DNA of 21,160 nucleotides from Calditrichaceae bacterium (GCA_050178385.1 JBFXGD010000053.1:1-21160); one strand, 5' to 3'. Positions 1 to 20,187 are shown, counted from the first letter of the stretch. Notes: a model not told the origin generated them from the sequence alone. Translations and numbers: made by a program.

Positions 1-120
1 TAACTCTTAACTCTTAACGCTATTAAATTCCTACTTCCTACTTCCCACTTCTTACTTTTCTTCTCTTTTATCTTTTTTCTTAAACTTCCTACTTCTTACT
101 TCTTACTTCTCTTCCTCCCC
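1..120. repeat. Heptamer tandem tract, right end of an intergenic repeat array that runs off the left edge of the window
   Basis: Units AACTCTT, CCTACTT, CTTACTT, CCCACTT plus the TTTTATCTTTTTTCTTAAA block; closely parallels about 8907-9015; abuts the cysD stop codon. Confidence 0.9.
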
Positions 121-1002
121 CTACATATACCCGTCTTTCCTAAGCGTTTCCAGCCCACCGCCGTCGTCCTTGTCCTGAGCGCGGCCGGAGCGTTCAGCGA
201 TATTGGCGAATTTCCCTGTTTTAAGTTCTTCGATTATTTCATCCACATTTCGCGCGTCCGACTCCACCGGTGTAGTGCAGGGATGGCAACCCAGGGAGCG
301 GTAGCGTATACCATCTCCCTGATTGTAGTAAAGAGAAACGGTCGGAATCTTTTCCCGTTTTATATATTCCCAGATATTGAGCTCGGTCCAGTCGAGCAAC
401 GGATGAATTCTAAGATGCGTACCCGGCGCGAAATCGGTTTTATACTGGTTCCAGAATTCAGGCGGCTGATCACCCACATCCCAGAGATTTTCACGATCCC
501 GTGGAGAAAAATAACGTTCCTTTGAACGGCTACCTTCTTCATCCGCGCGCACACCGACGATGATGCCGGTAAAGGCTTCGGTGTTTTTATCCACATCGTA
601 TTTTCCCGTGGCGTGATTCATCCGGAAACGTTTCCAGCTTCCTTCCAGCGTATGCTTTAGGGCATCTGTCTTTAACGCCCTGCAGCATGCGATACGATCC
701 AGATTACCATCCGGAAAAGTCTGTTTACTCGCCAGCGCTTCTTCATTCTGACCGTAGATCATATCCAGATTCCATTCGATCGCCAGACGATCACGATATT
801 CGATCATTTCAGGAATTTTAAAGGCCGTGTCGATATGCACCAGGGGAAAAGGCACATGACCAAAGAAGGCTTTTCGCGCCAGCCAAAGGAGCACGGTGCT
901 GTCTTTTCCAATGGACCACAACATCCCGAGATTCTTAAAATTATTGTATGCTTCACGTAATATATGGATACTTTTATTTTCCAACTGATCCAGATGATCC
1001 AT
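121..1002 (-). CDS. cysD: Sulfate adenylyltransferase subunit 2
   Basis: SIGKDS PP-loop, [45 protein letters not shown] and C-terminal GYM; AGGAG RBS at 1010-1014. Confidence 0.95.
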
Positions 1003-1047
1003 TGCTTCACTCCTGACGAATTCATTGATAACTTTTTTATAAATAAT

Positions 1048-1140
1048 ATGATCTGAACTCTCTGATTTCCAAATTCTTAATCATGGTCTTCATTTAATCA
1101 TTTTCACCCGCCAGAGGCGGACAGGTCACAGTTCAGACAA
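1048..1140. repeat. Module A (MITE-like element, left end missing) with nested hairpin F at 1107-1125
   Basis: Aligns with 8447-8538; ends in TCACAGTTCAGACAA, which is also present at 4265-4279. Confidence 0.75.
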
Positions 1141-1165
1141 CTTCTTACTTCCTACTCCCTACTTT

Positions 1166-1243
1166 CCTAACCCACCCCGGCCACGATAAATCGTGCCCTT
1201 CCCCTCCCTTATGCATAAGGGAGGGGATCGAGGGGAGGGTCAG
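1166..1243. repeat. Module C copy 1: 78-bp element with a 28-bp perfect palindrome
   Basis: TCCCCTCCCTTATGCATAAGGGAGGGGA at 1200-1227; outer arms ACCCACCCC/GGGGAGGGT; copies at 3974, 6526 and 8620. Confidence 0.95.
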
Positions 1244-1318
1244 GCCCAGACGCCCCAACTCTTAACACTATTCTCTTAACGCTCTTTTTTCTTTTATCTT
1301 TTTTCTTAAACTTCTTAC

Positions 1319-1395
1319 TTCTTACTTCCTACTTCAGACGCTCTTCTGCGTCTCTACTCTTCTCTTTTTTCTTTTTTCTTTTATCTTTTTTCTTA
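1319..1395. repeat. 77-bp direct repeat containing module H (GTAG-REP-like hairpin), copy 1
   Basis: Identical to 1848-1924 (offset 529); the minus strand reads GTAG-AGACGC-AGAAGA-GCGTCT. Confidence 0.9.
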
Positions 1396-1426
1396 CAATT
1401 CCTACTTCTTACTTATCTTCCCCTTC

Positions 1427-1605
1427 CCGGCCTTCCGAAAAAATCGGTTGAAATTCAGGCGAGCGGAACGACCGAAATTCTTTCTGTCTGAGACCGCTGC
1501 CAGGCGGGCGAGTTAAAGAATTTCAGTGCAGCGAGCCGTTTAATTTCACGATTTTTTGGGACAGCCTTGATCTTTTGGTTCTTTTCCATCAAGGGAAAAG
1601 AACAA
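1427..1605. repeat. Module B: long nested stem-loop followed by a terminal hairpin
   Basis: Arms 1438-1446/1549-1557, 1449-1455/1542-1548 and 1474-1483/1515-1524; hairpin 1578-1587/1594-1603; left half repeated at 8365-8430. Confidence 0.8.
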
Positions 1606-1618
1606 TATATTCCCCGAA

Positions 1619-1807
1619 CAGAAAATTCGCCCCAAAGAATCCCAAACGGTTGCCTTCAGATTAACAACAAGGTTATCCTGACCAGCAGAATAGGGATTCC
1701 CGCTGTAATTGTTCGACCCCTACGGGGCCGCGGGATGTTGTGGGGTCCGATTTTCTACAAAAATGCCATCCCTTCGGGATTGGAGATCCAATTTTCTTTA
1801 CCCGCCC
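1619..1807. repeat. Module D copy 1 (189 bp, two short REP-like hairpins)
   Basis: Gap-free alignment with 6618-6806 and 8712-8900; hairpins CGACCCC-TAC-GGGGCCG (1714-1730) and ATCCC-TTC-GGGAT (1768-1780). Confidence 0.95.
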
Positions 1808-1847
1808 AACTCTTAACTCTTAACTCTTTTCTCTTAACGCTCTTAAA

Positions 1848-1924
1848 TTCTTACTTCCTACTTCAGACGCTCTTCTGCGTCTCTACTCTTCTCTTTTTTC
1901 TTTTTTCTTTTATCTTTTTTCTTA
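1848..1924. repeat. 77-bp direct repeat containing module H, copy 2
   Basis: Identical to 1319-1395. Confidence 0.9.
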
Positions 1925-1973
1925 AAATCCCTACTTCCTACTTCTCACTTCTTACTTCCTACTTCTTACTTTT

Positions 1974-2702
1974 CTACTCCAAATATTTTTTATTCAGAAA
2001 CGCCATGATCTGATTTTTTGCATCATCCAGGCTGTTTTTTTCCATATCGATAATCAGATCTGGATTACCGGATGACTCATAAGCAATGTCAACACCCGGA
2101 ACATTGGATATTTCACCTTTTTCCGCCTTTTCGAACAATCCGTTATGATCAAACTTCCGGGCAAAATCTGTGGATGTTTTCAAATAGACTTCAATATAAT
2201 TATTACATATACTTTTGACAAATTCACGGCTGGTCCTGTAAGGTGACACAAAGGAAGCGATGCTGATGATACCCTGTTTCTCCAGCATAGATGCCAGATG
2301 GCCGACACGTTTGATATGATTATCCACTTCTTCCCGGGTAAATCCGGTCTCAGGGAAAAAAGCGCGAACATCATGACTGTCAAGACGCTGGGTTTTACGA
2401 CCATTTTTCTTTTTTATTTCTTCCAGTATCATATCGGCTATCGTTGTTTTACCCGAAAGAGGGATCCCGGTAATCCATACAACAAAGGCGGGTAATTCAT
2501 GTTTACCATACTTTATTTTATCCCAGCCCCGCTCATGAACGTAAAAAATAACCAGTTTAGCAATCATTTCAAGCAAACCGACTTCTATAGCTGTTTTAAT
2601 CTGTCCGGTAAGCAGAAATACAATTAGTGTTGTAGTTAAAGTCGCTGTAACACGCCATGTCACGGTTTTTAAAATTGTTCTTAATTTACTGTCCTTGTAC
2701 AT
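1974..2702 (-). CDS. cysC: Fusion of an N-terminal DUF2061-like membrane domain and an adenylyl-sulfate (APS) kinase domain
   Basis: N-terminal RTILKTVTWRVTATLTT...YVHERGWDKI is DUF2061-like; the C-terminal part has the P-loop WITGIPLSGKTT, GFTREE, IKRVG and SFVSPY. Confidence 0.8.
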   Translation of the reverse strand: MYKDSKLRTILKTVTWRVTATLTTTLIVFLLTGQIKTAIEVGLLEMIAKLVIFYVHERGWDKIKYGKHELPAFVVWITGIPLSGKTTIADMILEEIKKKNGRKTQRLDSHDVRAFFPETGFTREEVDNHIKRVGHLASMLEKQGIISIASFVSPYRTSREFVKSICNNYIEVYLKTSTDFARKFDHNGLFEKAEKGEISNVPGVDIAYESSGNPDLIIDMEKNSLDDAKNQIMAFLNKKYLE

Positions 2703-2734
2703 GCAGAGGCTTTTCCTGTATTAACGGTAGAAAT

Positions 2735-3016
2735 TTAGTTCTCACTAAAAAAAGAATCATCTTTTTCTTCGGATGTACTTTTGTCATCTTTAATAAAATA
2801 TTTTCCAAGCAAGGAATAAAATGGTTTGATGAGAGCGGTGACCCAAAGACTCCCCGTCAAAAAATACATGGTCAGGAGAAAAAGCCAGGGCGTCGCCGAC
2901 CAGTTTTTATATAAACCGATATTCGCCAAGATCAGAAATATGGCTGAAATCATATATCCGAATCTTTTTATCGGCAAATTTTCTTTAGATGTCTTTCCCT
3001 GAAGAAATCCGCTCAT
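2735..3016 (-). CDS. Small membrane protein, SxtJ-like (93 aa; start re-assigned to the ATG at 3016)
   Basis: ATG lies 1 nt after the upstream TAA; two hydrophobic segments, with KRFG...AIFL and LIKPFYSL resembling the SxtJ N-terminal half; the longer ORF-track start overlaps the antiterminator gene. Confidence 0.6.
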   Translation of the reverse strand: MSGFLQGKTSKENLPIKRFGYMISAIFLILANIGLYKNWSATPWLFLLTMYFLTGSLWVTALIKPFYSLLGKYFIKDDKSTSEEKDDSFFSEN

Positions 3017-3017
3017 T

Positions 3018-3524
3018 TTATACCGCCTTGTTTTCTTCAATTTTTTTAACCATATCCGAATCAATTTCGACTGACACCGACTGCATAAGGCCTTCAATGG
3101 CAACGACAATGCGGGTTTCGCCTTTTAAATTACGAACCATGCCTTTCATCCCCTTAAACGGTCCGGCAATCACATCGACAATCTCTCCCGGTTTGATATA
3201 TTTTTCCAGCCGGAGCGTCTCCGGATGCTCCAAAATCATTTTTAAAGAATCGATCTGCCAGGCGGGAACTACCGCGGGTTCATTTCTAAAATTGACAATT
3301 TTGACGATGCCGTTTGTTTCAAGCACAGAGAATCTTTGTTTATAGTCAATTCGAACAAAAAGGTAGCTTTTGAACAGCGGAACTTCCACCTTTTTCTTAC
3401 GGTCTTTCCAGAGATGCACTTCTGTGACAAGCGGTAAAAAGACCTCCTGATTTTTCTCCTCCAGCAGATCTCTTACCTTTTTTTCATGTCTTGGTCTTGT
3501 ATATATGGCGTACCAGTTTATCAT
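3018..3524 (-). CDS. upxY: UpxY/RfaH-type NusG-paralog transcription antiterminator
   Basis: NGN domain WYAIYTRPRHEKKV...PLFKSYLFV and KOW motif GEIVDVIAGPFKGMKG; located in a polysaccharide locus. Confidence 0.9.
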   Translation of the reverse strand: MINWYAIYTRPRHEKKVRDLLEEKNQEVFLPLVTEVHLWKDRKKKVEVPLFKSYLFVRIDYKQRFSVLETNGIVKIVNFRNEPAVVPAWQIDSLKMILEHPETLRLEKYIKPGEIVDVIAGPFKGMKGMVRNLKGETRIVVAIEGLMQSVSVEIDSDMVKKIEENKAV

Positions 3525-3622
3525 TATTTTCTCTTAATTATTCTATTCAGTATGCAATTGTATCAGTGCCGTGATAAATTAGATTTATGATGGAATTCGA
3601 CCTGTTTTTTTGAATGAGTAGA

Positions 3623-3650
3623 AATTTAACATAATTTTTAGATTTTGCAA
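3623..3650 (-). promoter_or_regulatory. Candidate sigma70 promoter for upxY
   Basis: Minus strand TTGCAA-16 nt-TAAATT with an extended -10 TGn, in an AT-rich region about 100 nt upstream of the ATG. Confidence 0.35.
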
Positions 3651-3973
3651 CATTGACGCATTTTGAATCCGTATAAACCTATTTTTTACTTCATTGTTCC
3701 TGTACATTTATATCTCTCATTACTTTTTCTCAATAGAAATTTCGTAGTAATATTTTTTCTTCCTTTCCTAACCCACCCCGGGGAGGATCAGCTGTACTGC
3801 TTCAGGCGAATTAACCGGTTTCGCCGCGCTTGTCTATCACAGCTGGCACCCGGATCGGGACGCCCCTACTCTTAACTCTTTTCTCTTAACGCTTTTTATT
3901 CCTACTTCTGTACTCTTTTTTCTTTTATCTTTTTTCTTTTATCTTTTATCTTAAAATTCCTACTTCTTACTTT

Positions 3974-4051
3974 CCTAACCCACCCCGGCCCCGATAAATC
4001 GTGCCCTTCCCCTCCCTTATGCATAAGGGAGGGGATTGAGGGGAGGGTCAG
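3974..4051. repeat. Module C copy 2
   Basis: 28-bp palindrome at 4008-4035. Confidence 0.95.
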
Positions 4052-4172
4052 TCTCACTCGAACAGAAAATTCGCCCCAAAGAATCCTCTTTTCTAAATCC
4101 TTTCAAGATAGACAATGGCTTACAGCATGACAGAAACGGAGGGTCACTGTTCAACGGCGACTATCCTCAGTA

Positions 4173-4279
4173 TGTCATTCCGTAGGAATCCTATGCTTTG
4201 TCCGAACAATTTTCCCAAGAAAGCAGAAGATCCCTCTTCTTAAAACCCGCCTCTGGCGGGCAGGTCACAGTTCAGACAA
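4173..4279. repeat. Module E-left plus hairpin F, fused to the right end of module A
   Basis: 4173-4264 aligns without gaps to 6331-6422; 4265-4279 equals 1126-1140. Confidence 0.85.
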
Positions 4280-4355
4280 CTTCTTATCTTTTTTCTTAAA
4301 ATTCTTACTTCTTACTTCCTACTTCTTACTTTCCCTCTCTTCCCAAGTAAGCAGA

Positions 4356-4374
4356 AGATCCCTGCGGGATGACA
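4356..4374. repeat. Module E right arm (AGATCCCTGCGGGATGACA)
   Basis: Inverted counterpart of TGTCATTCCGTAGGAATC(T/C) at 4173 and 6331; variants at 5981-5999 and 6284-6302. Confidence 0.75.
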
Positions 4375-4543
4375 AGCACGGCGGCCGGTGTGATGAACAT
4401 CTACTCTTTTTTCTTTTATCTTTTTTCTTAAACTTCTTACTTCCTACTTCCCACTTCCCACTTCTTACTTTTCTTCTCTTTTTTCTTTTTTCTTTTATCT
4501 TTTTTCTTAAACTTCCTACTTCCTACTTCCTACTTCCTACTTC

Positions 4544-5875
4544 TTACTTATTCTTCTCCCCCATCCAATCCAAAATTAGAGTTGAAATATCCGTGATGGA
4601 GAGACGTTTCTCCGGCAATTCTCGCTCCCGCGCCAGAATAAAAGCATCATCAAAGGTATGCATACCATTAAAAACCGTTTTCTCAAACAGATTTTCTCGC
4701 CACAACGCGCCCTTTAAATCATATCCATCGTATGGGGCAGCGATCAGATCAGGCGTTATTGAATTTGTTTCATTCTGCCCCCGGCCGGGATCAAATTGAT
4801 CATGTCCTCCATAAATTTCCTCCCCGTTTAAGACGTGTTTTATCACCGGTTGTGCTGTCCTGGGATCCTGAATCTGTAATAGCGATTCTTTTAAACTCCG
4901 CCTTATTTGTTCATACTCGAGACCGGGATTAACGGATCCTGTTTTCTCCCTGCCCTTCAGATTTATATAGATCCTTCCGGGATAGAGGCTGTATGCAATG
5001 CTGGAGGGATGTATATCTTTTAAGTTATTCGGGACAGGTTTTGTGAATCGCAATAAACCTTTTTCCCATAACCAGCGGTTGAGATATACTTCTTTTTTCA
5101 AAGTGGTGAATCCGTGATCCGATAAAAGAATCAGGTCCATATCCTTTGGTATTTTTACAATGATGTCTCCGATCAACCGGTCAATTCTCTGATAAAATTT
5201 CATAAAAACAGATTCGTATTTCGGATGCCGGGTCTCCATCAATTCCCAGGTGAAATGATGCAAACGATCCGTTTCCATGATATGAGTCATGAAAAATTCC
5301 CATTTTTCACGCTCAAAATATTCCCACATGGTTTCAATTCTTTTTTCCAAAACCTCATTCAGATCATTTATGAAGGCATCAAGATCTTTTTTTGCCAACT
5401 CAACATCCGAATCGATTCTATAACCTTTTGCCTTTAGAAGAGTGCCGATTTCAGATGGGTATGTTCCTTTTGTAATGTCCGAACCCAGAAATCCGCAGAT
5501 CATGATACCATTGACTTTTTGCGGTGGATAGGTCATGGGTACATTCATGACAAACACCCGTTTATTTTGTTCAGAAAGAATCGTCCATAAGGTTTTTTCA
5601 CGTAAACGGTCCGCAAGGGGTACATACCATTCCATGGTTGACGGATCCCGGTCAATGAATCCCATAATCCCGTGCTGATGAGGCTGACACCCGGTCATAA
5701 AAGATGCCCAGGCAACCGAGGAGACAGGCGGCAGAACAGAATCCATTTGCGCGAAGGATGATTTTTTAACCAAAGTGGCCAGATTCGGCATTTTCCCGGA
5801 ATTGATCATCCTGTTGAGAAAGGAATACGGGGTACCGTCAAGCGCCAGCACAAATATACGTTTTCCTGCGCTCAA
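4544..5875 (-). CDS. Alkaline phosphatase superfamily protein (type I phosphodiesterase/nucleotide pyrophosphatase-like), paralog 1
   Basis: LALDG, PPVSSVAWASFMTG, ETDRLHH, LSDHGF and GMH motifs; TTG start. Confidence 0.9.
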   Translation of the reverse strand: MSAGKRIFVLALDGTPYSFLNRMINSGKMPNLATLVKKSSFAQMDSVLPPVSSVAWASFMTGCQPHQHGIMGFIDRDPSTMEWYVPLADRLREKTLWTILSEQNKRVFVMNVPMTYPPQKVNGIMICGFLGSDITKGTYPSEIGTLLKAKGYRIDSDVELAKKDLDAFINDLNEVLEKRIETMWEYFEREKWEFFMTHIMETDRLHHFTWELMETRHPKYESVFMKFYQRIDRLIGDIIVKIPKDMDLILLSDHGFTTLKKEVYLNRWLWEKGLLRFTKPVPNNLKDIHPSSIAYSLYPGRIYINLKGREKTGSVNPGLEYEQIRRSLKESLLQIQDPRTAQPVIKHVLNGEEIYGGHDQFDPGRGQNETNSITPDLIAAPYDGYDLKGALWRENLFEKTVFNGMHTFDDAFILARERELPEKRLSITDISTLILDWMGEKNK

Positions 5876-6118
5876 AACGCATGCCCCGTTCTGTTATTTT
5901 TTATATTCATTATTATCAATAGATTATTCTTACTTCCTACTTCTTACTTCTTACTTTTCGTCTCTTCCCAAGCAAACAAAAGATCCTTCCTGGATGACAA
6001 GTTTGAGAATGTAATCTAACGCCCCTACTTCTTACTTTTCTTCTCTTTTTTCTTTTTTCTTTTATCTTTTTTCTTAAAATTCCAACTTCTTACTTCTCAC
6101 TTCTTACTTATTCTTCTC

Positions 6119-6225
6119 CCCCTACTTTTTGAATGGCCAAAAAGTAGCAAAAAGCCCTGGCGAATTTTAACTCGTGATAATTATTTCTATTTTTCTAATT
6201 CATCCACTCGGACAGAAAATTCGCC
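6119..6225 (-). repeat. Inverted, diverged relative of module B
   Basis: Minus strand GGCGAATTTT-CTGTCCGAG...CGAGTT-AAAATTCGCC...CTTTTTGC-TACTTTTTG-GCCATT-CAAAAAGTA has the same architecture as 1474-1603. Confidence 0.65.
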
Positions 6226-6330
6226 CCGAAGAATCGTAAACAGCTGTTTTGGGATTAACAACAAGATTATTCCGACCAGCAGAAGATCCTTACTGGATGA
6301 CATCCTTGTGAATCGACAGTGTCCAAATCA

Positions 6331-6428
6331 TGTCATTCCGTAGGAATCTTCTGGTTTGTCCGAACAATTTTCCCAGGTAAGCAGAAGATCCGTCTTCTTA
6401 AAACCCGCCTCTGGCGGGCAGGATGACA
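6331..6428. repeat. Module E with hairpin F (6404-6422) nested in its right arm
   Basis: Ends TGTCATTCC...GGATGACA form an imperfect inverted repeat. Confidence 0.8.
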
Positions 6429-6525
6429 CAGTTATGCCTATTTTCAGGCGCGGGACGCTCCCTACTCTTAACTCTTTTCTCTTAACGCTCTTTTTTCTTT
6501 TATCTTTTATCTTTTATCTTACTTT

Positions 6526-6806
6526 CCTAACCCACCCCGGGCCTGATAAATCATGCCCTTCCCCTCCCTTATGCATAAGGGAGGGGATCGAGGGGAGGGT
6601 CAGTCCTTCAGCTCAATCAGAAAATTCGCCACGAAGAATCGTAAACAGCTGTTTTGGGATTAACAACCCAATTATCCTGACCAGCAGAATAGAGATTCCC
6701 GCTGTAATTGTTCGACCCCTACGGGGCCGCGGGATGTTATGGGGTCCGTTTTTCTACAAAAATGCCATCCCTTCTGGATTGGAGATCCAATTTTCTTTAC
6801 CCGCCC
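6526..6806. repeat. Composite module C + D (281 bp)
   Basis: Gap-free, near-identical to 8620-8900 (offset 2094); palindrome at 6560-6587. Confidence 0.95.
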
Positions 6807-6942
6807 TACACTTAACTCTTAACTCTTTTCTCTTAACGCTCTTTACTTCTTACTTCTTACTTCCTACTTCTTACTTCCTACTTCTTACTTTTCTTCTCTT
6901 TTTTCTTTTTTCTTTTATCTTTTATCTTAAACATCTTACTTC

Positions 6943-8328
6943 TTACTTATTCTTATTCTTCCTCCCCTCCATATCCTCCGGAACAGGCAATCCCATTCTG
7001 GTCAGGATCGTTGGAGCAATGTCGTAAATGCTAATTTCTTTTGTGTATTCTGGACTAATATCTCTGCCATTCATGATAAAGATTCCATAATAATCATGAT
7101 TAGCGCCATCCGGCCCGGTATCATTTTTATGGGTATAAATCCCCCCCAGGCCGACATTCCCAATAGAGCGCCATGCCAGATCATCAAAATAAATGAACAA
7201 ATCAGGCGCGATACCATTTACAACAGGATATTTTTCCGCCGCCGTAAAGGCGCGATTATTCATTGGATTTCCCGAATCATCCTTCAAATGCTGTATTTTT
7301 GATCTTATTTCCGCTAATAAATCCCGATATTGTGATTCCAAAACAATCCCCAGTGGTTCACGCCCCTTTAAATTTACAAAGAGCCTCCCGTAATACCCGC
7401 CTTCCCCCCAGGCCATCGTGCGGCTCCAGTCAACGAGTTCCGGAGTCAGTTTTACCGGTTTCTCAGGGATTTTTTTTAGGGTTAGATACCATTCCCTGAT
7501 CAGCCATTCGTTTATGCAAAAACCGCCTTTCATTGTTTTCGCACCGTGATCCGAAACAACGATAATATCTGTATCATTATCAAGACGCTTTAACAGCGAA
7601 CCGATTTCCATGTCAATATATTGATAGTATTTGTAAATGACCCGTTCATATTTATTCCCCGCGACATAATCGGGGCTGTCGGCGGCGAAATGATGCCAGA
7701 AGGCGTGATGAATCCTGTCCACACCCATTTCTACAAACATGAAGAAATCCCACCGCTGGTGATCCAACATATGACGAACAAGTTTGAATCGCGCTGCTGT
7801 CATTCCGTAAATATCTTTGAGTAACCGCATTTTCTCATCGGTTCTGAAATCCGACACATCCGGCAGATAATCTGGGGTGATACGATACAATTCATTTTTG
7901 AATTTCTTTGGCCATGTAAAATCCGCATCTTTTGACGGTGTCATCATCCCGGAAACAAGATATCCTTTAACGGGACGCGGCGGATAGGTCTGCGGCACAC
8001 CAATCACAATGGATGTCCGGCCATTTTTGGTCATGATATCCCATAGCCGATCGGCATGAACATACGATCCGTTTGCGATAAAAAGATCATCATACGAATG
8101 ATTTTTTCGGTTTCTGAATCCGTAAATCCCCAGTGTTCCGGGGCTTTTACTGCTCATCATGCTGGTCCATGCCGGGATAGTGATCGGCGGATCGGTGCTG
8201 CGCATTCGGGCGGAGTACCCATTATCGATCAAAGCTGCCAAATTAGGAAGATCATTTTTCCAGCGATTAAAGATTAAATCCGGATCAGCGCAATCCAGAC
8301 CAATAATGAAGGTTTTTCTGGTTTTCAT
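6943..8328 (-). CDS. Alkaline phosphatase superfamily protein (NPP-like), paralog 2
   Basis: IGLDCA, STDPPITIPAWTSMMS, GVDRIHH, VSDHG, DGANH and DIAPTIL...PEDMEG motifs. Confidence 0.9.
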   Translation of the reverse strand: MKTRKTFIIGLDCADPDLIFNRWKNDLPNLAALIDNGYSARMRSTDPPITIPAWTSMMSSKSPGTLGIYGFRNRKNHSYDDLFIANGSYVHADRLWDIMTKNGRTSIVIGVPQTYPPRPVKGYLVSGMMTPSKDADFTWPKKFKNELYRITPDYLPDVSDFRTDEKMRLLKDIYGMTAARFKLVRHMLDHQRWDFFMFVEMGVDRIHHAFWHHFAADSPDYVAGNKYERVIYKYYQYIDMEIGSLLKRLDNDTDIIVVSDHGAKTMKGGFCINEWLIREWYLTLKKIPEKPVKLTPELVDWSRTMAWGEGGYYGRLFVNLKGREPLGIVLESQYRDLLAEIRSKIQHLKDDSGNPMNNRAFTAAEKYPVVNGIAPDLFIYFDDLAWRSIGNVGLGGIYTHKNDTGPDGANHDYYGIFIMNGRDISPEYTKEISIYDIAPTILTRMGLPVPEDMEGRKNKNK

Positions 8329-8422
8329 ATTGATGCTTGTTTTCTATCTTATTGTCATTCCACGCCGGCCTTCCGAAAAAACCGTCGGAAATTCAGGTGA
8401 GCGGAACGGTCGAAATTCTTCA

Positions 8423-8538
8423 TTGTCTGAACTATGATTTATCTGATGATCTGAACACTCTGATTTCCAATTTCTTAATCATGCTTATCAGTTAATCATT
8501 CTAATTCACCCAAGGCGGACAGGTCACAGTTCAGACCA
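8423..8538. mobile_element. Module A complete copy, MITE-like non-autonomous element
   Basis: Terminal inverted repeats TTGTCTGAACTATGA (8423-8437) and TCACAGTTCAGACCA (8524-8538), 13/15 match; no target-site duplication or transposase seen. Confidence 0.45.
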
Positions 8539-8619
8539 GTTCTTCTCTTTTTTCTTTTTTCTTTTATCTTTTTTCTTAAAATTCTTACTTCCTACTTCCT
8601 ACTTCTTACTTCCTACTTT

Positions 8620-8900
8620 TCTAACCCACCCCGGGCCTGATAAATCATGCCCTTCCCCTCCCTTATGCATAAGGGAGGGGATCGAGGGGAGGGTCAGTCC
8701 TTCAGCTCAATCAGAAAATTCGCCACGAAGAATCGTAAACAGCTGTTTTGGGATTAACAACAAGGTTATCCTGACTAGCAGAATAGGGATTCCCGCTGTA
8801 ATTGTTCGACCCCTACGGGGCCGCGGGATGTTGTGGGGTCCGTTTTTCTACAAAAATGCCATCCCTTCGGGATTGGAGATCCAATTTTCTTTACCCGCCC
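8620..8900. repeat. Composite module C + D (281 bp)
   Basis: Near-identical to 6526-6806; palindrome at 8654-8681. Confidence 0.95.
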
Positions 8901-9015
8901 TACTCTTAACTCTTAACTCTTTTCTCTTAACGCTTTTAAATTCTTACTTCCTACTTCCCACTTCTTACTTTTCTTCTCTTTTTTCTTTTATCTTTTATCT
9001 TTTTTCTTAAACTTC

Positions 9016-9885
9016 TTACTTCCTACTTCTTACTTCTCTCACTTCCTCCCTCAGCCTCTCCACAATCTCCGGTGGAATGACAAGACCGCCTCTTCCGATT
9101 CCCGGTTCAACATCGGGTTTGGCCGAGCCATGAAAATCAGAACCGCCGGAAACAACCAAATTATTCTTCCCGGCGAATTTGACCAGCCATTCTGTCAAAT
9201 ATTTATCATGCCCCGGATAGTAGGCCTCTATTCCATCGAGTCCGACGGCTTTCATTTCGAGTATTTTTTCGCCCAGCTCACGGTAGGTTTCGTATTTCAG
9301 GCTTACCGGATGCGCGATGATCGCCAGCCCGCCGGCCCGGTGAATAAGCTCAATCGCCGGTTCCAATTTTAATTTTGTCTTTGGCACATATCCCGGCCGC
9401 CCTTTGCTCAGATATTTGTCAAATGCCTCATAAATATCGCTTACGACACCTTTCTTTATCAGTATCGCGGCGATATGAGGGCGCCCGGCGCTTCCCTGAC
9501 CGACAGCATCTATCAGATCATCGGCATCAATCGGTATCCCGGCTTCCCGCAATTTTTGAACGATCCTAAACGCGCGCTCTTCACGCGCTTTTTTAAGTTT
9601 GTTCAATTCTTCTATTAAAGTGACATTTTCCGGATCAAACAGCAGGCCGAGCATATGAAGATGAGCCCCACCGGTTAACTCCATATCAATACTGAGTTCA
9701 ACTCCCGGGATCACATCAACCCGCTTTTTTTCCCCGTACTCCCTTGCGGGAAGCACCCCGCCGATTTCGTCATGGTCTGTAACGGCAATGATTCCTACAT
9801 CACGCGCGCTGACATAATCGATGAGCTCTTCCGGGGAGAAGGAACCGTCTGAATAATTTGTATGCATATGAAGATCGATTAACAT
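9016..9885 (-). CDS. PHP-domain metal-dependent hydrolase (YciV/TrpH-like; possible 3',5'-nucleoside bisphosphate phosphatase)
   Basis: DLHMHTNYSDG, TDHD, GVELS, GRPHIA, IAHP and GGSDFHG motifs; start overlaps the upstream stop (TAATG). Confidence 0.9.
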   Translation of the reverse strand: MLIDLHMHTNYSDGSFSPEELIDYVSARDVGIIAVTDHDEIGGVLPAREYGEKKRVDVIPGVELSIDMELTGGAHLHMLGLLFDPENVTLIEELNKLKKAREERAFRIVQKLREAGIPIDADDLIDAVGQGSAGRPHIAAILIKKGVVSDIYEAFDKYLSKGRPGYVPKTKLKLEPAIELIHRAGGLAIIAHPVSLKYETYRELGEKILEMKAVGLDGIEAYYPGHDKYLTEWLVKFAGKNNLVVSGGSDFHGSAKPDVEPGIGRGGLVIPPEIVERLREEVREVRSRK

Positions 9886-10085
9886 TACAGATACCCCAGA
9901 TCTTCAAGACGTTTTTTTATTTCATCTGATTCATTATCTGAATATCCGTTTTCATTTTTAATTCCGCTCTGATCAATAAAATCCTGTAGCACAAATAATA
10001 CCAGATCATCAATCGATGTGAAGCTGGTTTCACCCAAATATTTTTCAAGTTCCCGCCATAGTTTATCGGGCAATTGTATATTCAT
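9885..10085 (-). CDS. Small protein with a CopG/ribbon-helix-helix-like N-terminus and an acidic tail ending EIKKRLEDLGYL
   Basis: 66-aa ORF, translationally coupled to the PHP gene; NIQLPDKLWREL...FTSIDDLVLFVLQ pattern. Confidence 0.75.
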   Translation of the reverse strand: MNIQLPDKLWRELEKYLGETSFTSIDDLVLFVLQDFIDQSGIKNENGYSDNESDEIKKRLEDLGYL

Positions 10086-10138
10086 CTCTTATTTTCCTCA
10101 TTTTTTCCTTTTGTAAAGATAGCAAACATAATACAAAT

Positions 10139-10164
10139 AAAAAAGGCGGAACAAGTCCGCCTTT
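10139..10164 (-). terminator. Intrinsic terminator after the nucleotide-sugar dehydrogenase genes
   Basis: AAAGGCGGA-5 nt loop-TCCGCCTTT (10142-10164) followed by a T-run on the minus strand. Confidence 0.75.
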
Positions 10165-10182
10165 ATCAGAATGGTGACCTGT

Positions 10183-11493
10183 TTAAGCTTTGATAATATT
10201 TTCCCGGTTTTCAGTCACATCTTTCGTGGCATTGCGGGTATCGACAACCAATTTTGAATTTCTCACTATAAATTCCCAGTCATAGACCGAGTGATCCGTT
10301 GAAATGAGAACACAGTCATATCCCGCCAGATTTTCAACCGTTAAATCAATGCTCTTTTTCTTGATGTCATACATGCGCATATCCGGGAGCGCCGGAATGA
10401 ACGGATCATTATAATCCACCATGGCGCCTTTTTCAAGCAAAAGTTCCATAAGCTTAAAGGATGGAGATTCACGCGGATCGTCAATATCTTTTTTATAAGC
10501 CGCGCCCAGAACAAGAATTTTTGCCCCCTTCATACTCTTACCGTGATCATTCAACGCGTCCATCACTTTTGAGATCACCCAGAAGGGCATGGATGTATTG
10601 ACTTCACCGGCAAGTTCTATAAATCGCGTATTCATTTCAAATTCACGGGCTTTCCAGGTTAGATAAAACGGATCGATTGGAATACAGTGACCTCCCAAAC
10701 CGGGCCCGGGGTAAAACGGCATATACCCGAAAGGTTTGGTCGATGCTGCGTTTATGACTTCCCACACATCGATCCCCATACGGTCAAGGATCATCTTCAT
10801 TTCATTGACAAGCGCGATATTGACACTCCGGAAAATATTCTCCAGAAGTTTTGTGGCTTCCGCCGCCTGACTGCTGGAAACCGGAATCGTTTTCACGATC
10901 ACTTTTTCATACAGCGCCATGGCCAGTTGCCGGGCATATTCGGTATTCGCGCCAACGACCTTCGGGATAGTGCGGGTGTTGTACTTTGGATTATTCGGAT
11001 CTTCTCTCTCAGGTGAAAAAGCCACCCAGAAATCACTGTCACCCTTTAGCCCCGATTCTTCCAGTATCGGTTTCAGGACTTCCTCCGTGGTTCCGGGATA
11101 GGTGGAGCTTTCAAGGACGATAAACTGTCCCTTCCGGATGTGCTTTGCCAATGTTTGAGCAGTACCCGTAATGAAGGACATATCCGGTTCGCGATGACGT
11201 GTCAGAGGTGTTGGTACGCAGATCAGAATACAATCTACATCCTTAATCCTGCTAAAATCATTTGTGGCTTCAAAGATTTTTGTATCCCTGACCGCCTTTA
11301 CCCTTTTTTCATCAATATGTTTGATATAAGATTTACCGTCGTTGAGCATTTCCACCTTGCGCCCGTCAATATCAAAACCGACCGTATTAAATCCCTGTTC
11401 AACAAACTCCATCAGCAGGGGAAGACCAACATACCCCAGGCCGACCACACCGATAACTGCTTCCTTCGAATTAATTTTATCAAGAAGATTCAT
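10183..11493 (-). CDS. wbpA: Nucleotide-sugar dehydrogenase, UDP-N-acetylglucosamine 6-dehydrogenase (WbpA/WecC-like)
   Basis: GLGYVG, ICVPTP, ESSTYPGTTEE, SPEREDP, KLLENIFR and GGHCIPIDP motifs; AGGAG at 11499-11503 favours the ATG at 11493 over the GTG at 11499. Confidence 0.85.
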   Translation of the reverse strand: MNLLDKINSKEAVIGVVGLGYVGLPLLMEFVEQGFNTVGFDIDGRKVEMLNDGKSYIKHIDEKRVKAVRDTKIFEATNDFSRIKDVDCILICVPTPLTRHREPDMSFITGTAQTLAKHIRKGQFIVLESSTYPGTTEEVLKPILEESGLKGDSDFWVAFSPEREDPNNPKYNTRTIPKVVGANTEYARQLAMALYEKVIVKTIPVSSSQAAEATKLLENIFRSVNIALVNEMKMILDRMGIDVWEVINAASTKPFGYMPFYPGPGLGGHCIPIDPFYLTWKAREFEMNTRFIELAGEVNTSMPFWVISKVMDALNDHGKSMKGAKILVLGAAYKKDIDDPRESPSFKLMELLLEKGAMVDYNDPFIPALPDMRMYDIKKKSIDLTVENLAGYDCVLISTDHSVYDWEFIVRNSKLVVDTRNATKDVTENRENIIKA

Positions 11494-11521
11494 AGACACT
11501 CCTGTTCGTTATAAGCTCGGA

Positions 11522-12859
11522 TCAAACTTTCGTATTAAATTTGAGATCCGGACGGCCAATTGAAAAATAGTTAATTCCAAAATTTTTCATACGCTCCGGA
11601 TTATACAGATTTCTTCCGTCAAATATAGCCGGATTATTTAACAGGTCTTTGATGAGATAAAAATCGGGCTCTCTGAACTCATTCCACTCAGTCATAATGA
11701 CAAGAGCGTCTGCGCCTTCGAGCGCTTCATACCGTTTATGGAAAAGGGTGATATCCTTTCCAACCCTGTCTTTAAAAATTCTTTCTGCCTCTTTTAGCGC
11801 TTCAGGATCATGCGCCTGAATTTTAGCCCCTTCAGCGGTGAACGCATCGATTATTGAAATGGCCGGAGCTTCACGCATATCATCAGTTTTAGGCTTGAAA
11901 GCCAGTCCCCAAATCGCGAAGGTTTTTCCTTTCAGGTCACCATTAAAATATGTTTTTATTTTATTTATTAATATCGTTTTCTGTCGGTCATTTACGTCTT
12001 CCACCGCCTGGAGAACATTCAGTTTCATCCCATATTCCTGAGCAGTTTTGATGATCGCTTTCACATCTTTAGGGAAACAGGATCCGCCATACCCGGTTCC
12101 CGGGAATATAAAATAAGGACCGATGCGTCGATCCGATCCGATCCCCTTACGAACCATTTCAATATTCGCGTCCATAAGGTCACATAAGTTCGCCATTTCA
12201 TTCATAAAGGATATCTTTGTCGCTAAAAGAGAATTCGCCGCGTACTTGGTAAGTTCCGCGCTTTTTTCATCCATGACAATAATGGGCTTACCTGTACGCA
12301 CAAAAGGAGCATAGAGATTCTTCATAATCTCCTGCGCTTCCGTATCGCTGGTCCCTACAATTACACGGTCGGGCTGCATAAAATCGTTGATCGCCGCGCC
12401 TTCTTTGAGAAATTCCGGATTAGAAACCACAGCAAACTCATGATCCGTATGCTTCCTGATTTCCGCTCTTACTTTCTCAGCGGTTCCAACCGGAACCGTA
12501 CTCTTATCGACGACTACCTTGTAGCTGTTCATGTATTTTCCAATATCTGACGCTACCGCAAGAACATATTTTAGATCGGCGGAACCATCTTCATCAGGGG
12601 GCGTGCCTACGGCAATAAAAATTATTTTTGATTCCTGAACGGCGCTTTTTATATCGGTGACAAACTTCAGACGCTCTTCACGCACATTCCGTTTGATCAT
12701 TTCTTCAAGACCCGGTTCATAAATCGGAATTTCACCCCGGTTTAACATATCTATTTTCTTTTCATTCACATCAACACAAATGACTTCGTTACCGGTATCG
12801 GCGAAACAGGTACCGGCCACGAGTCCGACATAACCGGTGCCAACAACTGCAACTTTCAC
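11522..12859 (-). CDS. ugd: UDP-glucose 6-dehydrogenase
   Basis: GTGYVGL, AVGTP, KSTVPVGT, SNPEFLKEG, GYGGSCFPKD and GLAFKPKTDDMRE motifs; GTG start with AAGGAG RBS. Confidence 0.93.
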   Translation of the reverse strand: MKVAVVGTGYVGLVAGTCFADTGNEVICVDVNEKKIDMLNRGEIPIYEPGLEEMIKRNVREERLKFVTDIKSAVQESKIIFIAVGTPPDEDGSADLKYVLAVASDIGKYMNSYKVVVDKSTVPVGTAEKVRAEIRKHTDHEFAVVSNPEFLKEGAAINDFMQPDRVIVGTSDTEAQEIMKNLYAPFVRTGKPIIVMDEKSAELTKYAANSLLATKISFMNEMANLCDLMDANIEMVRKGIGSDRRIGPYFIFPGTGYGGSCFPKDVKAIIKTAQEYGMKLNVLQAVEDVNDRQKTILINKIKTYFNGDLKGKTFAIWGLAFKPKTDDMREAPAISIIDAFTAEGAKIQAHDPEALKEAERIFKDRVGKDITLFHKRYEALEGADALVIMTEWNEFREPDFYLIKDLLNNPAIFDGRNLYNPERMKNFGINYFSIGRPDLKFNTKV

Positions 12860-12957
12860 ATCAAACTCCTTAGCTTCAATATTTGTATTCGTTTTAGCCT
12901 GAAAGCAAAGCTAAAAATAATTTCAATTAATCAATTTTTATTTATCCGGGATCACAA

Positions 12958-15237
12958 TTATCTTGAAAAAACACCGGGTTTTTTCGTTTTCATCTTTTTT
13001 CCGGGCTTTGAATAGTAGTTATGGTAATAATAATAGTAATAGCTTCCGTATGTTCCTTCCACATCCACGTTGTTCAGCAGGAATCCAAGTATACGAGCGC
13101 CGACATTATCGAGAAGCGACTGTGAACGCAAAAGCGCGTCACGGTTTGTCTGACCCGAGGAGACGATGATAATTACCCCGTCAACTTTTGTGCTCAGGAT
13201 TGCCGCGTCGGTAACCGCGATCACCGGCGGACTGTCAAATAAAATAATATCAAAATCTTCTTTGAGCCGTTCGAGCAATCCTTCCATTTTATGGGAAGAG
13301 ATGAGTTCGGATGGGTTCGGCGGGAGAATCCCGCTTGTTATAATAAACAGATTATTTATAGGTGTCGTTTTTGCCAGTTCTTCGTAGGGAATGGCATCCA
13401 TCAGATAGTTAGTGACTCCTGAATCCTTTTCCTGCCCGAAGATGGAATGCACAACGGGCCGGCGCAGATCGGCATCCACAAGCACGACCCTATTTCCCGA
13501 CTGAGCCATGGCAATGGCCAGATTGGCCGCCGTTGTTGATTTACCCTCTTTGGGTCCGGAACTCGTGACCAGGATCGTTTTGAGTTTCTCATCTATCTTA
13601 CTGAACTGCAGATTGGTTCTTAGAGTGCGATAAGCCTCCGAAACCGGCGACTTCGGATCAAAATGCGCTATCAGACGGGCTTCAATCTTTTTACCTTCGA
13701 TCGGGCCGAGTCTTGACAGTTTGCTTTCCATTTTTTTCTCTACTTTATCCGTCGCGATAGTCGGTATTGTACCCAGAATATTCAGCCCCATTCTCTCGAT
13801 ATCTTCATGAGTCTTGATGGTGTTGTCAAAATATTCCACGAGGAATATGAGACCGATTCCCAGTCCAAGACCTATCAGCGCACCAAGCATCAGATTCATT
13901 TTTTTCTTTGGTTTAACCGGCGCGTATGGTTCAATTGCTTCATCTATAATTCTGACTTCATTCCGCTGACCCGCTTCCTGGATTTTGGTTTCTTCCATTT
14001 TCTGAGTCATCATGATATAGGTTTGCTCATCCACCATCCTGCGTCGCTCCAGGCGAGCCAGCTCAAGAACTTTTTCCGGTAAAATTTCCATTTTTCTGTT
14101 GTATTCGTTCACCACATCCTGAAGCGCGCTAATTTTTGCGGTCAGTGTTTTTATCTCGGCATCACTTGTCAATAGTTGTGTCACCAGATCTTGCGAAATC
14201 TGAAAGGGATCTTTTACCATGCTCGAAGTCGATATCTTCCGCGCCTCTTCTTCCAATTTCTGCTTCATCGCTTTAATTTTATCGTCATATTGCTTTATAT
14301 TTGCTTCGAAATGCCTTTTGTTCACATCCTGGACTTCAATTTCGATGGCGGTTGTGTATTTGGTTCGTTCCGCTACAATGGATGCCAGTTCCTGCTGCAG
14401 AGAGCTGAGGTACGGTGTGGATATCTCACTCAGATCGGTCGATAAGGTCTGCTTCCTTTCATCCAGTTGTTTCGCGAGAGAGCTTTTCATTTCCAGCTTT
14501 GCCTGTAATTCCACCTGTGCCTGCTCAAGCATGGATTCCACTCCGGAAAGACGGCCGACCAATCCGGATGTTTCATCATCCAAACTGGCTACTTTTTCAC
14601 GTTCCTGGTAGTCCCTCAATCGTTCTTCCGACAACCGAAGCTCTTCACCTTTTTTTGATAACTGAGTTTCCAGAAATTTACGCAGATCGCTTATTTCGCC
14701 GCGGCTGGCCTCGGCATTCGCGTACTGAAATTCATCGGCTATGGTGTTGGCTATATAAGCGGACTCAAAAGGAGTGCTCGCCTGATAGGTAATCTGAATA
14801 ATATCCGTTTCTTTTTTATGGGAAACATCCATGCTTGATTTGATTACTCCGATCATTCCGCGCATTGTCAGATATTCGCCCTGGCTGTTTGGCTGGAAGA
14901 GCGCTAAGGAATCACGAACATCGGAGAGATCCAGTCTTTTTACAACCCGTTCTGAAAGCGAGCGGCTTCTAATAATTTCAAGCTGATTGGCGATGGTAGT
15001 GTTCTGCCCGCCAAAACCGCCCATATCATAAAATGTCCGCTCCATTGCCCCATTGCGGTCGATAATTACCGAAGTTGTCGATTCATATACGGGTGTCGCG
15101 GTCATGGTGTAATACAGCGTAAACAAAAATACCACCAGGAATGATATGAGAATTATCCATCTTCCACGGTATAGTATCCGCAGATAATCATTCAGACTTA
15201 ACTGTTGTTCGTTAAATTCCAGTTCATTTTGATCCAA
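12958..15237 (-). CDS. wzc: Polysaccharide co-polymerase / BY-kinase (Wzc/GumC family)
   Basis: Two TM segments flanking a coiled-coil periplasmic domain; SEAYRTLRTN, Walker A GPKEGKST, DADLRRP, DSPP; C-terminal Tyr cluster; TTG start with AAGGAG. Confidence 0.93.
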   Translation of the reverse strand: MDQNELEFNEQQLSLNDYLRILYRGRWIILISFLVVFLFTLYYTMTATPVYESTTSVIIDRNGAMERTFYDMGGFGGQNTTIANQLEIIRSRSLSERVVKRLDLSDVRDSLALFQPNSQGEYLTMRGMIGVIKSSMDVSHKKETDIIQITYQASTPFESAYIANTIADEFQYANAEASRGEISDLRKFLETQLSKKGEELRLSEERLRDYQEREKVASLDDETSGLVGRLSGVESMLEQAQVELQAKLEMKSSLAKQLDERKQTLSTDLSEISTPYLSSLQQELASIVAERTKYTTAIEIEVQDVNKRHFEANIKQYDDKIKAMKQKLEEEARKISTSSMVKDPFQISQDLVTQLLTSDAEIKTLTAKISALQDVVNEYNRKMEILPEKVLELARLERRRMVDEQTYIMMTQKMEETKIQEAGQRNEVRIIDEAIEPYAPVKPKKKMNLMLGALIGLGLGIGLIFLVEYFDNTIKTHEDIERMGLNILGTIPTIATDKVEKKMESKLSRLGPIEGKKIEARLIAHFDPKSPVSEAYRTLRTNLQFSKIDEKLKTILVTSSGPKEGKSTTAANLAIAMAQSGNRVVLVDADLRRPVVHSIFGQEKDSGVTNYLMDAIPYEELAKTTPINNLFIITSGILPPNPSELISSHKMEGLLERLKEDFDIILFDSPPVIAVTDAAILSTKVDGVIIIVSSGQTNRDALLRSQSLLDNVGARILGFLLNNVDVEGTYGSYYYYYYHNYYSKPGKKMKTKKPGVFSR

Positions 15238-15281
15238 CGATCTTCTCCTTTTTAATGATCAGCCGGCTTTGGAGCTTATCC

Positions 15282-16103
15282 TTAAAATATCTTTTTGATA
15301 CCGTTCACTTTTGCAAAAATCCTGTCTATCCAGGATTCATTTATCATCAGTCCGTCAAGCGATGGAACATCTATAGATCCGCCTTTTACCGCCAGCGCCG
15401 GATTAAGCTTGAAAAGTCGATCCGCGTCTTCCGGTGTCATAAGGTCAAGTGTGATTTTATACGCTTCCGCCAGTATTTTATAGCTGCGGTATTCCAGATC
15501 ATGGGCGTCAGATGCTATAAACTGGCACAACCCCGCTTTTAGAAGCCGCTGTGAAAATCCGGCTGCTTTGCCGCCAAACTGCCCGGTAAGGCTGCCCGCG
15601 TCCACCTGAATAAGACATCCCTGCCGGTACCATTCATAAATGGTCTCGGGTGTATCATGCAGACGGATGTATCGCTCGGGATGAGCTATAACCGGTGTAA
15701 TATTTCTCAACCGACAGCGGAAAATAAAGTCACTTACTCCGTCGGGTACAGCCATAAGCGGCAGTTCAAAGAGCAGATATCTTTTTTTACCGTTGAACGT
15801 AGCCCAGGGATAGTCCAGCCAGTGGTAAATCCGGTCAGAAAAAAACAATTCGGAGCCCAAAGAAATTTCAACCGGAATCTTCTCTGCCAGAACCCTGTCC
15901 TTTAATATTTTGAAATTATCCTGAATCTGGCGACTCACGCCGTCTTCTGTAATCTCTGTGGCGTGAGGTGTTGCCAGAAGATTCCTTATATCTAATGATG
16001 CCGCCTGTTCCAGCATCTTTAAAGATTGATCAATATTTCGGGCGCCGTCATCAACTCCGAATAAAAAGTGAGAATGGATATCGGTGTAGCCCATTTTTGT
16101 CAT
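15282..16103 (-). CDS. CpsB/CapC-family (PHP-type) tyrosine-protein phosphatase
   Basis: DIHSHFLFGVDDGA, ATPH, IAHPERY and ASDAH motifs; adjacent to wzc. Confidence 0.9.
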   Translation of the reverse strand: MTKMGYTDIHSHFLFGVDDGARNIDQSLKMLEQAASLDIRNLLATPHATEITEDGVSRQIQDNFKILKDRVLAEKIPVEISLGSELFFSDRIYHWLDYPWATFNGKKRYLLFELPLMAVPDGVSDFIFRCRLRNITPVIAHPERYIRLHDTPETIYEWYRQGCLIQVDAGSLTGQFGGKAAGFSQRLLKAGLCQFIASDAHDLEYRSYKILAEAYKITLDLMTPEDADRLFKLNPALAVKGGSIDVPSLDGLMINESWIDRIFAKVNGIKKIF

Positions 16104-16123
16104 TATGTGTGAGTCTCCCGGCT

Positions 16124-16765: not shown

Positions 16766-16779
16766 AATCGTTTCCTTTG

Positions 16780-19224: not shown

Positions 19225-19258
19225 TTATGACTCATTCTGCTTCTGTGAAAACTTGAAA

Positions 19259-19287
19259 AATATACTTAATTAGTCATATTAAAACAA
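19259..19287 (-). promoter_or_regulatory. Candidate sigma70 promoter for ftsK
   Basis: Minus strand TTGTTT-17 nt-TATATT, 35 nt upstream of the ATG. Confidence 0.4.
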
Positions 19288-19291
19288 GAAA

Positions 19292-20026: not shown

Positions 20027-20117
20027 CTTTCAGTACTTTGAACCTTTTATTTAAAAATGCGCTTCCAAAAATCTTCGCCGACAAAATAAACCCCTGGATC
20101 CGAATTTGATTATTTAA

Positions 20118-20153
20118 TAAAAAATGGCAATCCCTGACCCGAGGAACTGCCAT
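20118..20153 (-). terminator. Intrinsic terminator downstream of gcvT
   Basis: Minus strand ATGGCAGTTCCT-CGGGTC-AGGGATTGCCAT (12-bp stem with two G-U pairs) followed by a T-run. Confidence 0.7.
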
Positions 20154-20187
20154 ACTCAAACTCAACTTAAAGGATAATCTTTACCGA

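Follow-up and report, generated by a model that had tools for sequence, protein, structure and literature searches.

Organization of the locus

The stretch of DNA analyzed here (the window; 21,160 bp) is the entire contig C53 (JBFXGD010000053.1) of the genome of an uncultured Calditrichaceae bacterium (GCA_050178385.1, hereafter G000; 3.89 Mb, 320 contigs, 94% complete). Its first 9 kb carry intergenic arrays in which palindromic modules stand between strand-polarized heptamer tracts, and these arrays are the subject of this study. All genes within 1–9885 lie on the minus strand and are host genes: a cysD-like sulfate adenylyltransferase subunit (121–1002), a cysC-like adenylyl-sulfate kinase (1974–2702), a UpxY-family antiterminator (upxY, 3018–3524), AlkP-superfamily gene 2 (4544–5875), AlkP-superfamily gene 1 (6943–8328), and a PHP-domain gene (9016–9885). 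Wzc and nucleotide-sugar dehydrogenases follow to the right of the array region. The open reading frames (ORFs) were taken from a simple caller, on which the distances to stop codons given below are based.

Noncoding DNA within 1–9045 amounts to 3,896 bp, of which four arrays and a tract at 1–120 make up ~3.6 kb, in agreement with the ~3.5 kb of kit-built DNA described in the original prediction. All array features are given on the plus strand. Array 1 (1030–1973) extends from the cysC stop codon to the cysD start codon and reads A(F)-C-H-B-K end-D-H with tracts. Array 2 (3757–4560) consists of a C-stub, C, the K end (previously called the "D-head"), a linker, E-left, F, an A-end, E-right, and a tract that provides the stop codon of AlkP gene 2. 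This array holds an E-to-A chimera, joined within F at 4246–4277. Array 3 (5924–6965) separates the two AlkP genes and contains E-right, the "inverted B", the D-head, E-right, E(F), C, and D. Array 4 (8350–9050) is composed of B-left, A(F), C, the K end, D, and a tract that encodes the last codons and the stop codon of the PHP gene. The heptamer tract at 1–120, directly after the cysD stop codon, is the tail of an array that presumably continues on contig C187.

A marker scan returned the module orders of the four arrays as they had been described, and the earlier observation of arrays, modules, and orders is thus confirmed. In array 4, the order B-left, A(F), C, D stood, whereas its "E-head" proved to be merely a 9-base TGTC-tagged stub. 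The arrays follow the stop codons of PHP, both AlkP genes, cysC, and cysD, as predicted. No markers were found beyond ~9045, and the period-7 tandem repeats, scanned over 5000–21160, end at 9009.

Module families and their folding

Module A is a gene-less GxxExxY-type arm pair. It is left-truncated at 1048–1140, where the mini-palindrome F lies at 1107–1128, and full-length at 8425–8537, with terminal inverted repeats and an F insert; a 9-base period was looked for in this module and was not found. Module C (1162–1246) is a gene-less DUF559-type double palindrome with a small hairpin nested at ~1178–1198, and module H (1335–1352 and 1864–1881) is a mini-palindrome within the tract. Module D (1700–1806) comprises a pair of short hairpins like those found around TnpA-Y1 subclass 1.2 genes. 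Module E (4173–4233; also 4357–4374, 5982–5999, 6285–6302, and 6331–6348) consists of TGTC-tagged short hairpins. Module B (1424–1606) is a structured element of ~180 bp with an F-type insert at 1494–1507 and a terminal hairpin, and element K (6118–6236, the former "inverted B") combines a terminal hairpin with a long stem that shows compensatory variants across genera.

Two module assignments had to be revised. The D-head (1612–1700), originally named after D, corresponds to the right end of K together with a linker, and this K end is the commonest hub of the arrays. Likewise, B and the "inverted B" are not separate modules but a single family with a common core on opposite strands. The view that several unrelated hairpin families are involved was upheld. 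Folding was better than in shuffled sequences for C, K, F, H, and the end hairpin of B (z −3.2 to −4.8), but no better for A (z −0.85), D (z +0.45), and E (z −1.47/−0.58). Nested mini-palindromes occur within A, B, C, E, and K and within tRNA-derived repeats. Two further modules occur in G000 outside the window (C119:9718–10728 and C162:6416–6461), namely G (DUF559-type, 13 markers) and R (a GTAG-tagged palindrome, 4 markers).

Element K is present in 18 of 86 genomes, and the 31-mer of the B terminal hairpin occurs exactly in 45 stretches from Bacteroidota, Calditrichota (Calditrichaceae, Caldithrix, and Calditrichaeota records), and others. The long stem of K stays paired despite sequence changes, with complementary stems of 8–10 bp in 25/25 copies and 11 different stem strings, although these copies were chosen by pattern and the count leans positive. 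RNAalifold on 18 K copies recovered the end hairpin and missed the long stem because of misalignment. Comparison with Rfam covariance models gave nothing above the gathering score on the element in 10 B/K loci, and only two sub-threshold chance matches in window positions 1–10200. When ORFs within 600 bp were inspected in 70 B/K loci (38 of the 45 31-mer loci included, 7 that duplicate sister-genome arrays dropped), no recurring family appeared other than host-gene pairs and translated stretches of the element. In viral contigs, the loose B/K core pattern gave chance matches, none with the terminal hairpin, and the C hairpin gave no match. Mosaics of several families are found in other lineages as well: in Lewinella records (L257, L261, L253, L281), B recurs with a period of ~500 bp beside apparent GxxExxY-type arms, and L498 contains B, K, mini-palindromes, and a DUF559-type arm.

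Order and polarity of the modules across the genome

In G000, the main modules are present in tens of copies each, distributed across 10–34 contigs. There are 105 tract-bearing arrays, 53 of which carry at least two families. Most directional markers (238/311) are no more than 300 bp away from a tract, in a zone that makes up 2.1% of the genome, and the short E motif occurs 36 times, vs 0 in three shuffles; both figures greatly exceed chance. The 49 multi-family arrays display 43 different orders, and 21 of 30 family pairs are seen both ways round. Certain junctions are nevertheless strongly preferred, as the K end comes after C in 16/20 cases and D after the K end in 13. This C-K end-D series is what would be expected if all arrays were decayed pieces of one insertion sequence (IS) or MITE (miniature transposable element with inverted repeats) with a fixed internal order. 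Such an origin is, however, extremely unlikely and largely refuted by the variety of orders; moreover, modules can occur singly in other genomes and match different gene families.

Among the tract-proximal markers, 211/238 point in the direction of the pyrimidine strand of the tract, or 178/185 when module A, which is partly self-inverted, was left out. The original prediction had seen almost only one orientation relative to transcription. The single polarity holds, but it is locked to the tract and not to transcription: between co-directional gene pairs, the purine strand corresponds to the mRNA in 38 arrays and is reversed in 9, and the modules follow the tract in both array directions (82/82 and 19/22, respectively). 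Furthermore, 8 of the 23 multi-array contigs hold both polarities. Because the modules follow the tract in either direction and because contigs are mixed, polarity is independent of both the direction of transcription and the contig strand. The replication strand was also considered as a source of polarity and was ruled out, since opposite polarities are found only a few kilobases apart.

Anchoring of the tracts at stop codons

Where the purine strand faces a stop codon, the array begins within 30 bp of it in 44/60 cases, compared to 7/108 in the other three configurations (p 1e-19). In 16 cases the array overlaps the end of the gene, and many host proteins end in tract-coded residues, e.g., VRSRK or GSKK. 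In the window, the C-terminal VRSRK of the PHP-domain protein is tract-coded, and AlkP gene 1 ends in GRKNKNK, unlike the ends of 7 orthologues. With a period of 7 bases and TAA/TAG in the repeat, a tract offers stop codons in all three frames, and such insertions are therefore likely to be tolerated.

Changes between related genomes

The arrays were compared with those of the sister genome G001 (4.3 Mb), using 1.11 Mb of its sequence that were partly chosen for arrays. Of 11 collinear array sites, 10 carry an array in both genomes, and content and length differ at 8/10. In G001, composite units form tandem repeats, including tandem triplications. Empty sites were found as well: the AlkP gene pair, separated by a 1,067-bp gap in the window, overlaps by 1–8 bp in 7 of 10 relatives' loci. 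Thus, orthologous intergenic sites can be filled or empty, as anticipated, and most shared sites hold other contents in G001. In L002 (G034), from a different family, a C-type element lies in the AlkP-pair gap, which suggests that this site was used independently.

Several chimeras could be mapped to short shared words. E joins A inside F (2 cases; window example 4215–4282), and the transition from the K linker to E falls on a 7-base word (2 cases; window example 6266–6305). These junctions bear on the possibility that each module was inserted singly by its own enzyme, with polarity arising from strand-specific attack on single-stranded DNA at the tract and with recombination being secondary. 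Such insertion agrees with the nesting of mini-palindromes described above, with module sequences that are kept far better than neutral DNA, and with the accessible text on Ssn nucleases, according to which cleavage by these enzymes is confined to one strand of the hairpin (PMC11893778). Nevertheless, we regard it as unlikely, because the C-K end and K end-D junctions are common and inherited, because many half-elements are fused to another family at short shared words, and because the assembly is without most partner genes.

The degree of conservation differs between modules. Identity between G000 and G001 is highest for C (median 97.5%, up to 100%), followed by B (92%), K (91%), D (85%), A (82%), and E (78%), whereas the baseline is 69% at third codon positions and 77% in a small intergenic sample (419 columns).

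The orders might also be chimeras of short-read assembly. Contig ends do coincide with arrays more often than expected (30/640 vs ~8), and array 1 of the window resembles a composite of two arrays on C187. However, just two exact repeats that recur elsewhere are longer than 120 bases (191 and 141), and the independent assembly of G001 shares the modules and the kinds of junction and, at one orthologous array, also the order. An assembly artifact is therefore very unlikely. Contig C187 itself probably joins the left end of the window, with cysD leading to cysN, since the end of C187 and the start of the window match a D-tail/tract junction from which about a dozen bases are missing. On C187, the D-tail is followed by cysN, cysC, and a four-helix-bundle cassette that is filled.

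Candidate partner genes

For each of four gene families, up to 30 loci were drawn from the 86 genomes of the phylum, and their 260-bp flanks were scored with profiles built from the G000 copies (threshold, 8 bits; G000 and G001 loci excluded); the four-helix-bundle sample comprised 20 loci from four genomes. The A profile matched only GxxExxY flanks (4/29), and the D profile matched TnpA-Y1 flanks (6/29). The C profile matched DUF559 flanks (4/30), as did that of module G, which is absent from the window (13/30). The E profile matched one of 30 GIY-YIG flanks (L194, on both sides of the gene), and the F profile 3/30, all of tRNA-linked genes. No module profile matched shuffled flanks, and the profiles of B, K, and H gave no matches in the flanks of the sampled families.

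Closer links were seen at individual loci. E is near-identical to the arms of the 95-aa single-domain GIY-YIG gene at L194 (G015). The single four-helix-bundle gene of G000, on C187, has inverted arms made of the same heptamers as the tracts, and period-7 arrays are present on both sides of 8/20 four-helix-bundle genes vs 2/138 other genes. The four-helix-bundle family (TIGR02436) may resemble the accessory protein Avd of diversity-generating retroelements. In G001, a TnpA gene of low copy number with the Y---Q--HH signature of subclass 1.2 (L364) lies amid dozens of D-like repeats; matching D-like repeats occur at a contig end in G000, where the gene is not found. Partner genes outside the window had been predicted from these very families, and the comparison points to GxxExxY for A, DUF559 for C, TnpA for D, GIY-YIG for E and F, and the four-helix bundle for the tracts.

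We consider it probable that the arrays are landing pads for gene-less derivatives of several such tiny cassettes, later reshuffled among themselves. Several results weigh against this reading. The cognate links are likenesses in a minority of flanks; that of C is weak (1/30 at 11 bits, 4/30 with a solo-C profile, and a DUF559 gene within 1.5 kb in 0/21 C loci elsewhere), and that of E is based on one locus. Cross-matches occurred, of D to one DUF559 and one GIY-YIG flank and of C to one AlkP control. No partner gene was found for B/K and H, and the literature yielded no report that GxxExxY, DUF559, or four-helix-bundle proteins act enzymatically on arms of this kind. In addition, the 97.5–100% identity of C, against 69% at third codon positions, is not predicted for purely neutral relics. 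Finally, the GxxExxY, GIY-YIG, and TnpA genes of G000 bear other repeats, a search of G000 and G001 for an L194-type GIY-YIG gene found none, and no intact DUF559 gene was found in either genome; most partner enzymes are, for these reasons, not shown to be present.

More tentatively, and in our view rather unlikely, the four-helix-bundle, GxxExxY, DUF559, and small GIY-YIG proteins could all be RAYT-like mobilizers, i.e., comparable to the tyrosine transposases of repetitive extragenic palindromic (REP) sequences, with the tracts as an actively made, stop-targeted, polarity-setting pad and B/K as a further structured element found across phyla. If so, the tracts would rewrite protein C-termini and recruit all other families, the near-identity of the modules would reflect continuing selection for enzyme recognition, and the arrays would be a maintained multi-enzyme recombination platform and not debris.

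Other copies of these gene families were noted in different settings. Single-domain GIY-YIG genes lie in tRNA clusters between partial tRNA copies (G000 C88:975–1621 and C99:11871–12077; L189, L192, L196), in which F-type mini-palindromes take the place of the T-arm; these mini-palindromes also fill the B/K slot. GxxExxY genes with their own non-A arm families are found at C16:37459–37803 of G000 (in a long repeat field) and C7:70044–71332 of G001 (three in tandem). A second TnpA-Y1 gene of G000 (C62:11864–12205) is surrounded by AT-rich tandem repeats that have no relation to the window modules. Of two four-helix-bundle cassettes in G003 (L111 and L113), one is within an apparent CRISPR array and the other in 23S rRNA-like sequence, as judged by eye.

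Genes next to the arrays

In the window, positions 121–2702, together with C187:729–3999, apparently hold cysD, cysN, and two adenylyl-sulfate kinase genes beside AlkP genes and wzc, and this combination points to a sulfated surface polysaccharide. A 124-aa ORF (2735–3109, minus strand) overlaps upxY; it has no NCBIfam match, and its real start is probably further downstream.

The original prediction proposed a possible role of the arrays in diversifying a surface-glycan locus. Such a specific role was not supported, as the arrays are genome-wide and only ~6/69 genes flanking multi-family arrays outside C53 are related to glycans or sulfation vs ~10/79 random G001 genes (classified by hand at E 1e-20, with only glycan genes scored as surface/variable). 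Flanking genes are often housekeeping genes, such as hemB, a hemL-type aminotransferase gene, purD, uvrB, and carB. The finding therefore gives no evidence of a new diversification system for surface glycans. C53 and C187 together hold 11 of the 105 tract clusters, a density that fits local copying, and it is possible that arrays are tolerated here under UpxY antitermination.

The further suggestion that arrays are hot spots for the gain and loss of neighboring genes received weak support: gene gain, loss, or breaks were found at 4/15 array junctions vs ~27/613 elsewhere (p 0.005, with a rough denominator), and 10 further cases were interrupted by contig ends. This excess is suggestive only. 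It would be expected if the arrays were domesticated recombination or regulatory sites kept by the host, swapping flanking genes in the manner of the Neisseria mosaics discussed below or serving as mRNA 3′-end elements. The conserved positions between species (10/11), the high conservation of the modules, and the array density at this locus agree with such a function, as do the AlkP gene of the locus without a match in G001 and the end of G001 synteny at array 4. We nonetheless judge host-kept sites to be quite unlikely. The G001 contig ends at the counterpart of array 4, so a synteny break there is unproven; glycan genes are not enriched and many flanks are housekeeping genes; and neither terminators nor promoters in the arrays exceed shuffled sequences (terminator-like sites, 13 vs 10.7 ± 3.3).

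Comparison with known systems

An "undescribed system", as the arrays had been called, is too strong a term, since the neisserial intergenic mosaic element (NIME) arrays behave alike. As described in the accessible sections of Bentley et al. 2007 (PMC1797815), these are long intergenic mosaics of many repeat families at syntenic positions, with variable content and length; they are proposed recombination substrates and, according to the same sections, had not been seen outside Neisseria. The arrays studied here share the syntenic positions (10/11 sites) and the variable content (8/10). In contrast to NIME arrays, the 20-bp dRS3 inverted repeats have no match in the window with up to 1 mismatch, the spacers are strand-polarized heptamer tracts anchored at stop codons, and the modules trace to several enzyme families, mixing far more unrelated families. 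Moreover, no bias toward surface genes, scored on glycan genes, was found here.

REP sequences, bacterial interspersed mosaic elements (BIMEs), and REPINs with RAYT or TnpA-REP are the second point of comparison. In these, as far as the accessible text of PMC2817692 and PMC3733652 describes them, gene-less hairpins also flank a small nuclease or transposase gene, and composite units are tandemly amplified, mainly downstream of genes, as observed here. BIMEs have alternating orientations and one or two REP types, whereas the present arrays combine at least six unrelated families in one polarity. A repeat that flanks an HUH Y1 transposase gene is seen only for module D (6/29 flanks; L364 in G001), and the HUH link is limited to D and to GTAG-tagged ends. 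Such ends abut tracts in 26 cases vs 1 in each of two shuffles; D lacks the canonical foot. According to the accessible part of Quentin et al. 2018 (PMC6006769), TnpA-Y1 subclass 1.2 genes are generally without typical IS200 terminal structures. The G001 gene is like them in signature and low copy number but differs in that it lies in a dense field of D-like repeats, and D copies are dispersed.

Ssn nucleases with their SRM/NTS (CGTC-type) repeats have been described by Chenal et al. 2025 (PMC11893778). To judge from the accessible text of that paper, E resembles these repeats in its TGTC tag, short stem, and ...ATC tail and in bracketing a single-domain GIY-YIG gene, and the L194 gene is a candidate member of cd10448. 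The 5-bp stem of E is, however, below the published SRM pattern, which has no match in the window. This pattern gave 11 genome matches vs 5–6 in shuffled sequence, but the test is blunt, as it also gave 0/30 matches in GIY-YIG flanks. The tracts resemble the four-helix-bundle cassette in arm architecture and heptamers. No paper was found on a GxxExxY pairing, on the pairing of four-helix-bundle genes with heptamers or of DUF559 with palindromes, or on stop-codon anchoring of such repeats, in a search that took in Calditrichota repeats but mostly did not include subscription journals and did not cover supplements. Taken together, the arrays behave like NIME arrays and hybrid BIMEs and are members of neither. 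What this case adds is the many families per polarity-locked array, the anchoring at stop codons with recoded C-termini, the mapped crossovers that link unrelated families, and the partnerless B/K element.

A model for array formation and its implications

The landing-pad reading can be formulated in three steps. First, four-helix-bundle-type heptamer tracts, which are associated with gene ends, would have arrived there such that the mRNA carries the purine strand, in many cases in place of the final codons. Second, GxxExxY, DUF559, TnpA-Y1 subclass 1.2, and single-domain GIY-YIG cassettes reduced to their arms, together with B/K and mini-palindromes, would accumulate at these tracts, with which they are associated, and also inside one another, in harmless spots. 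Each family would at some time have been spread in trans by its own enzyme acting on single-stranded hairpins. Third, segments may be swapped, lost, and duplicated by ectopic recombination, gene conversion, or template switching of co-oriented copies. Crossovers in the tracts and in short shared words would then lead to the observed pattern of many orders with one polarity. The single dedicated shuffling machinery of the original prediction is not favored, as each family points to its own partner gene and the chimeric junctions lie at short shared words. The system would be mainly selfish, without a dedicated shuffling enzyme or a glycan-specific role.

The arrays explain the assembly breakage of such genomes. 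They also represent dynamic NIME-like arrays far from Neisseria and include a stop-codon-targeting repeat by which protein tails are recoded. Within one genome pair, the orphan families GxxExxY, DUF559, four-helix bundle, and TnpA subclass 1.2 are tied to concrete DNA substrates, and because the hairpins are named, the activity of these families is directly testable.

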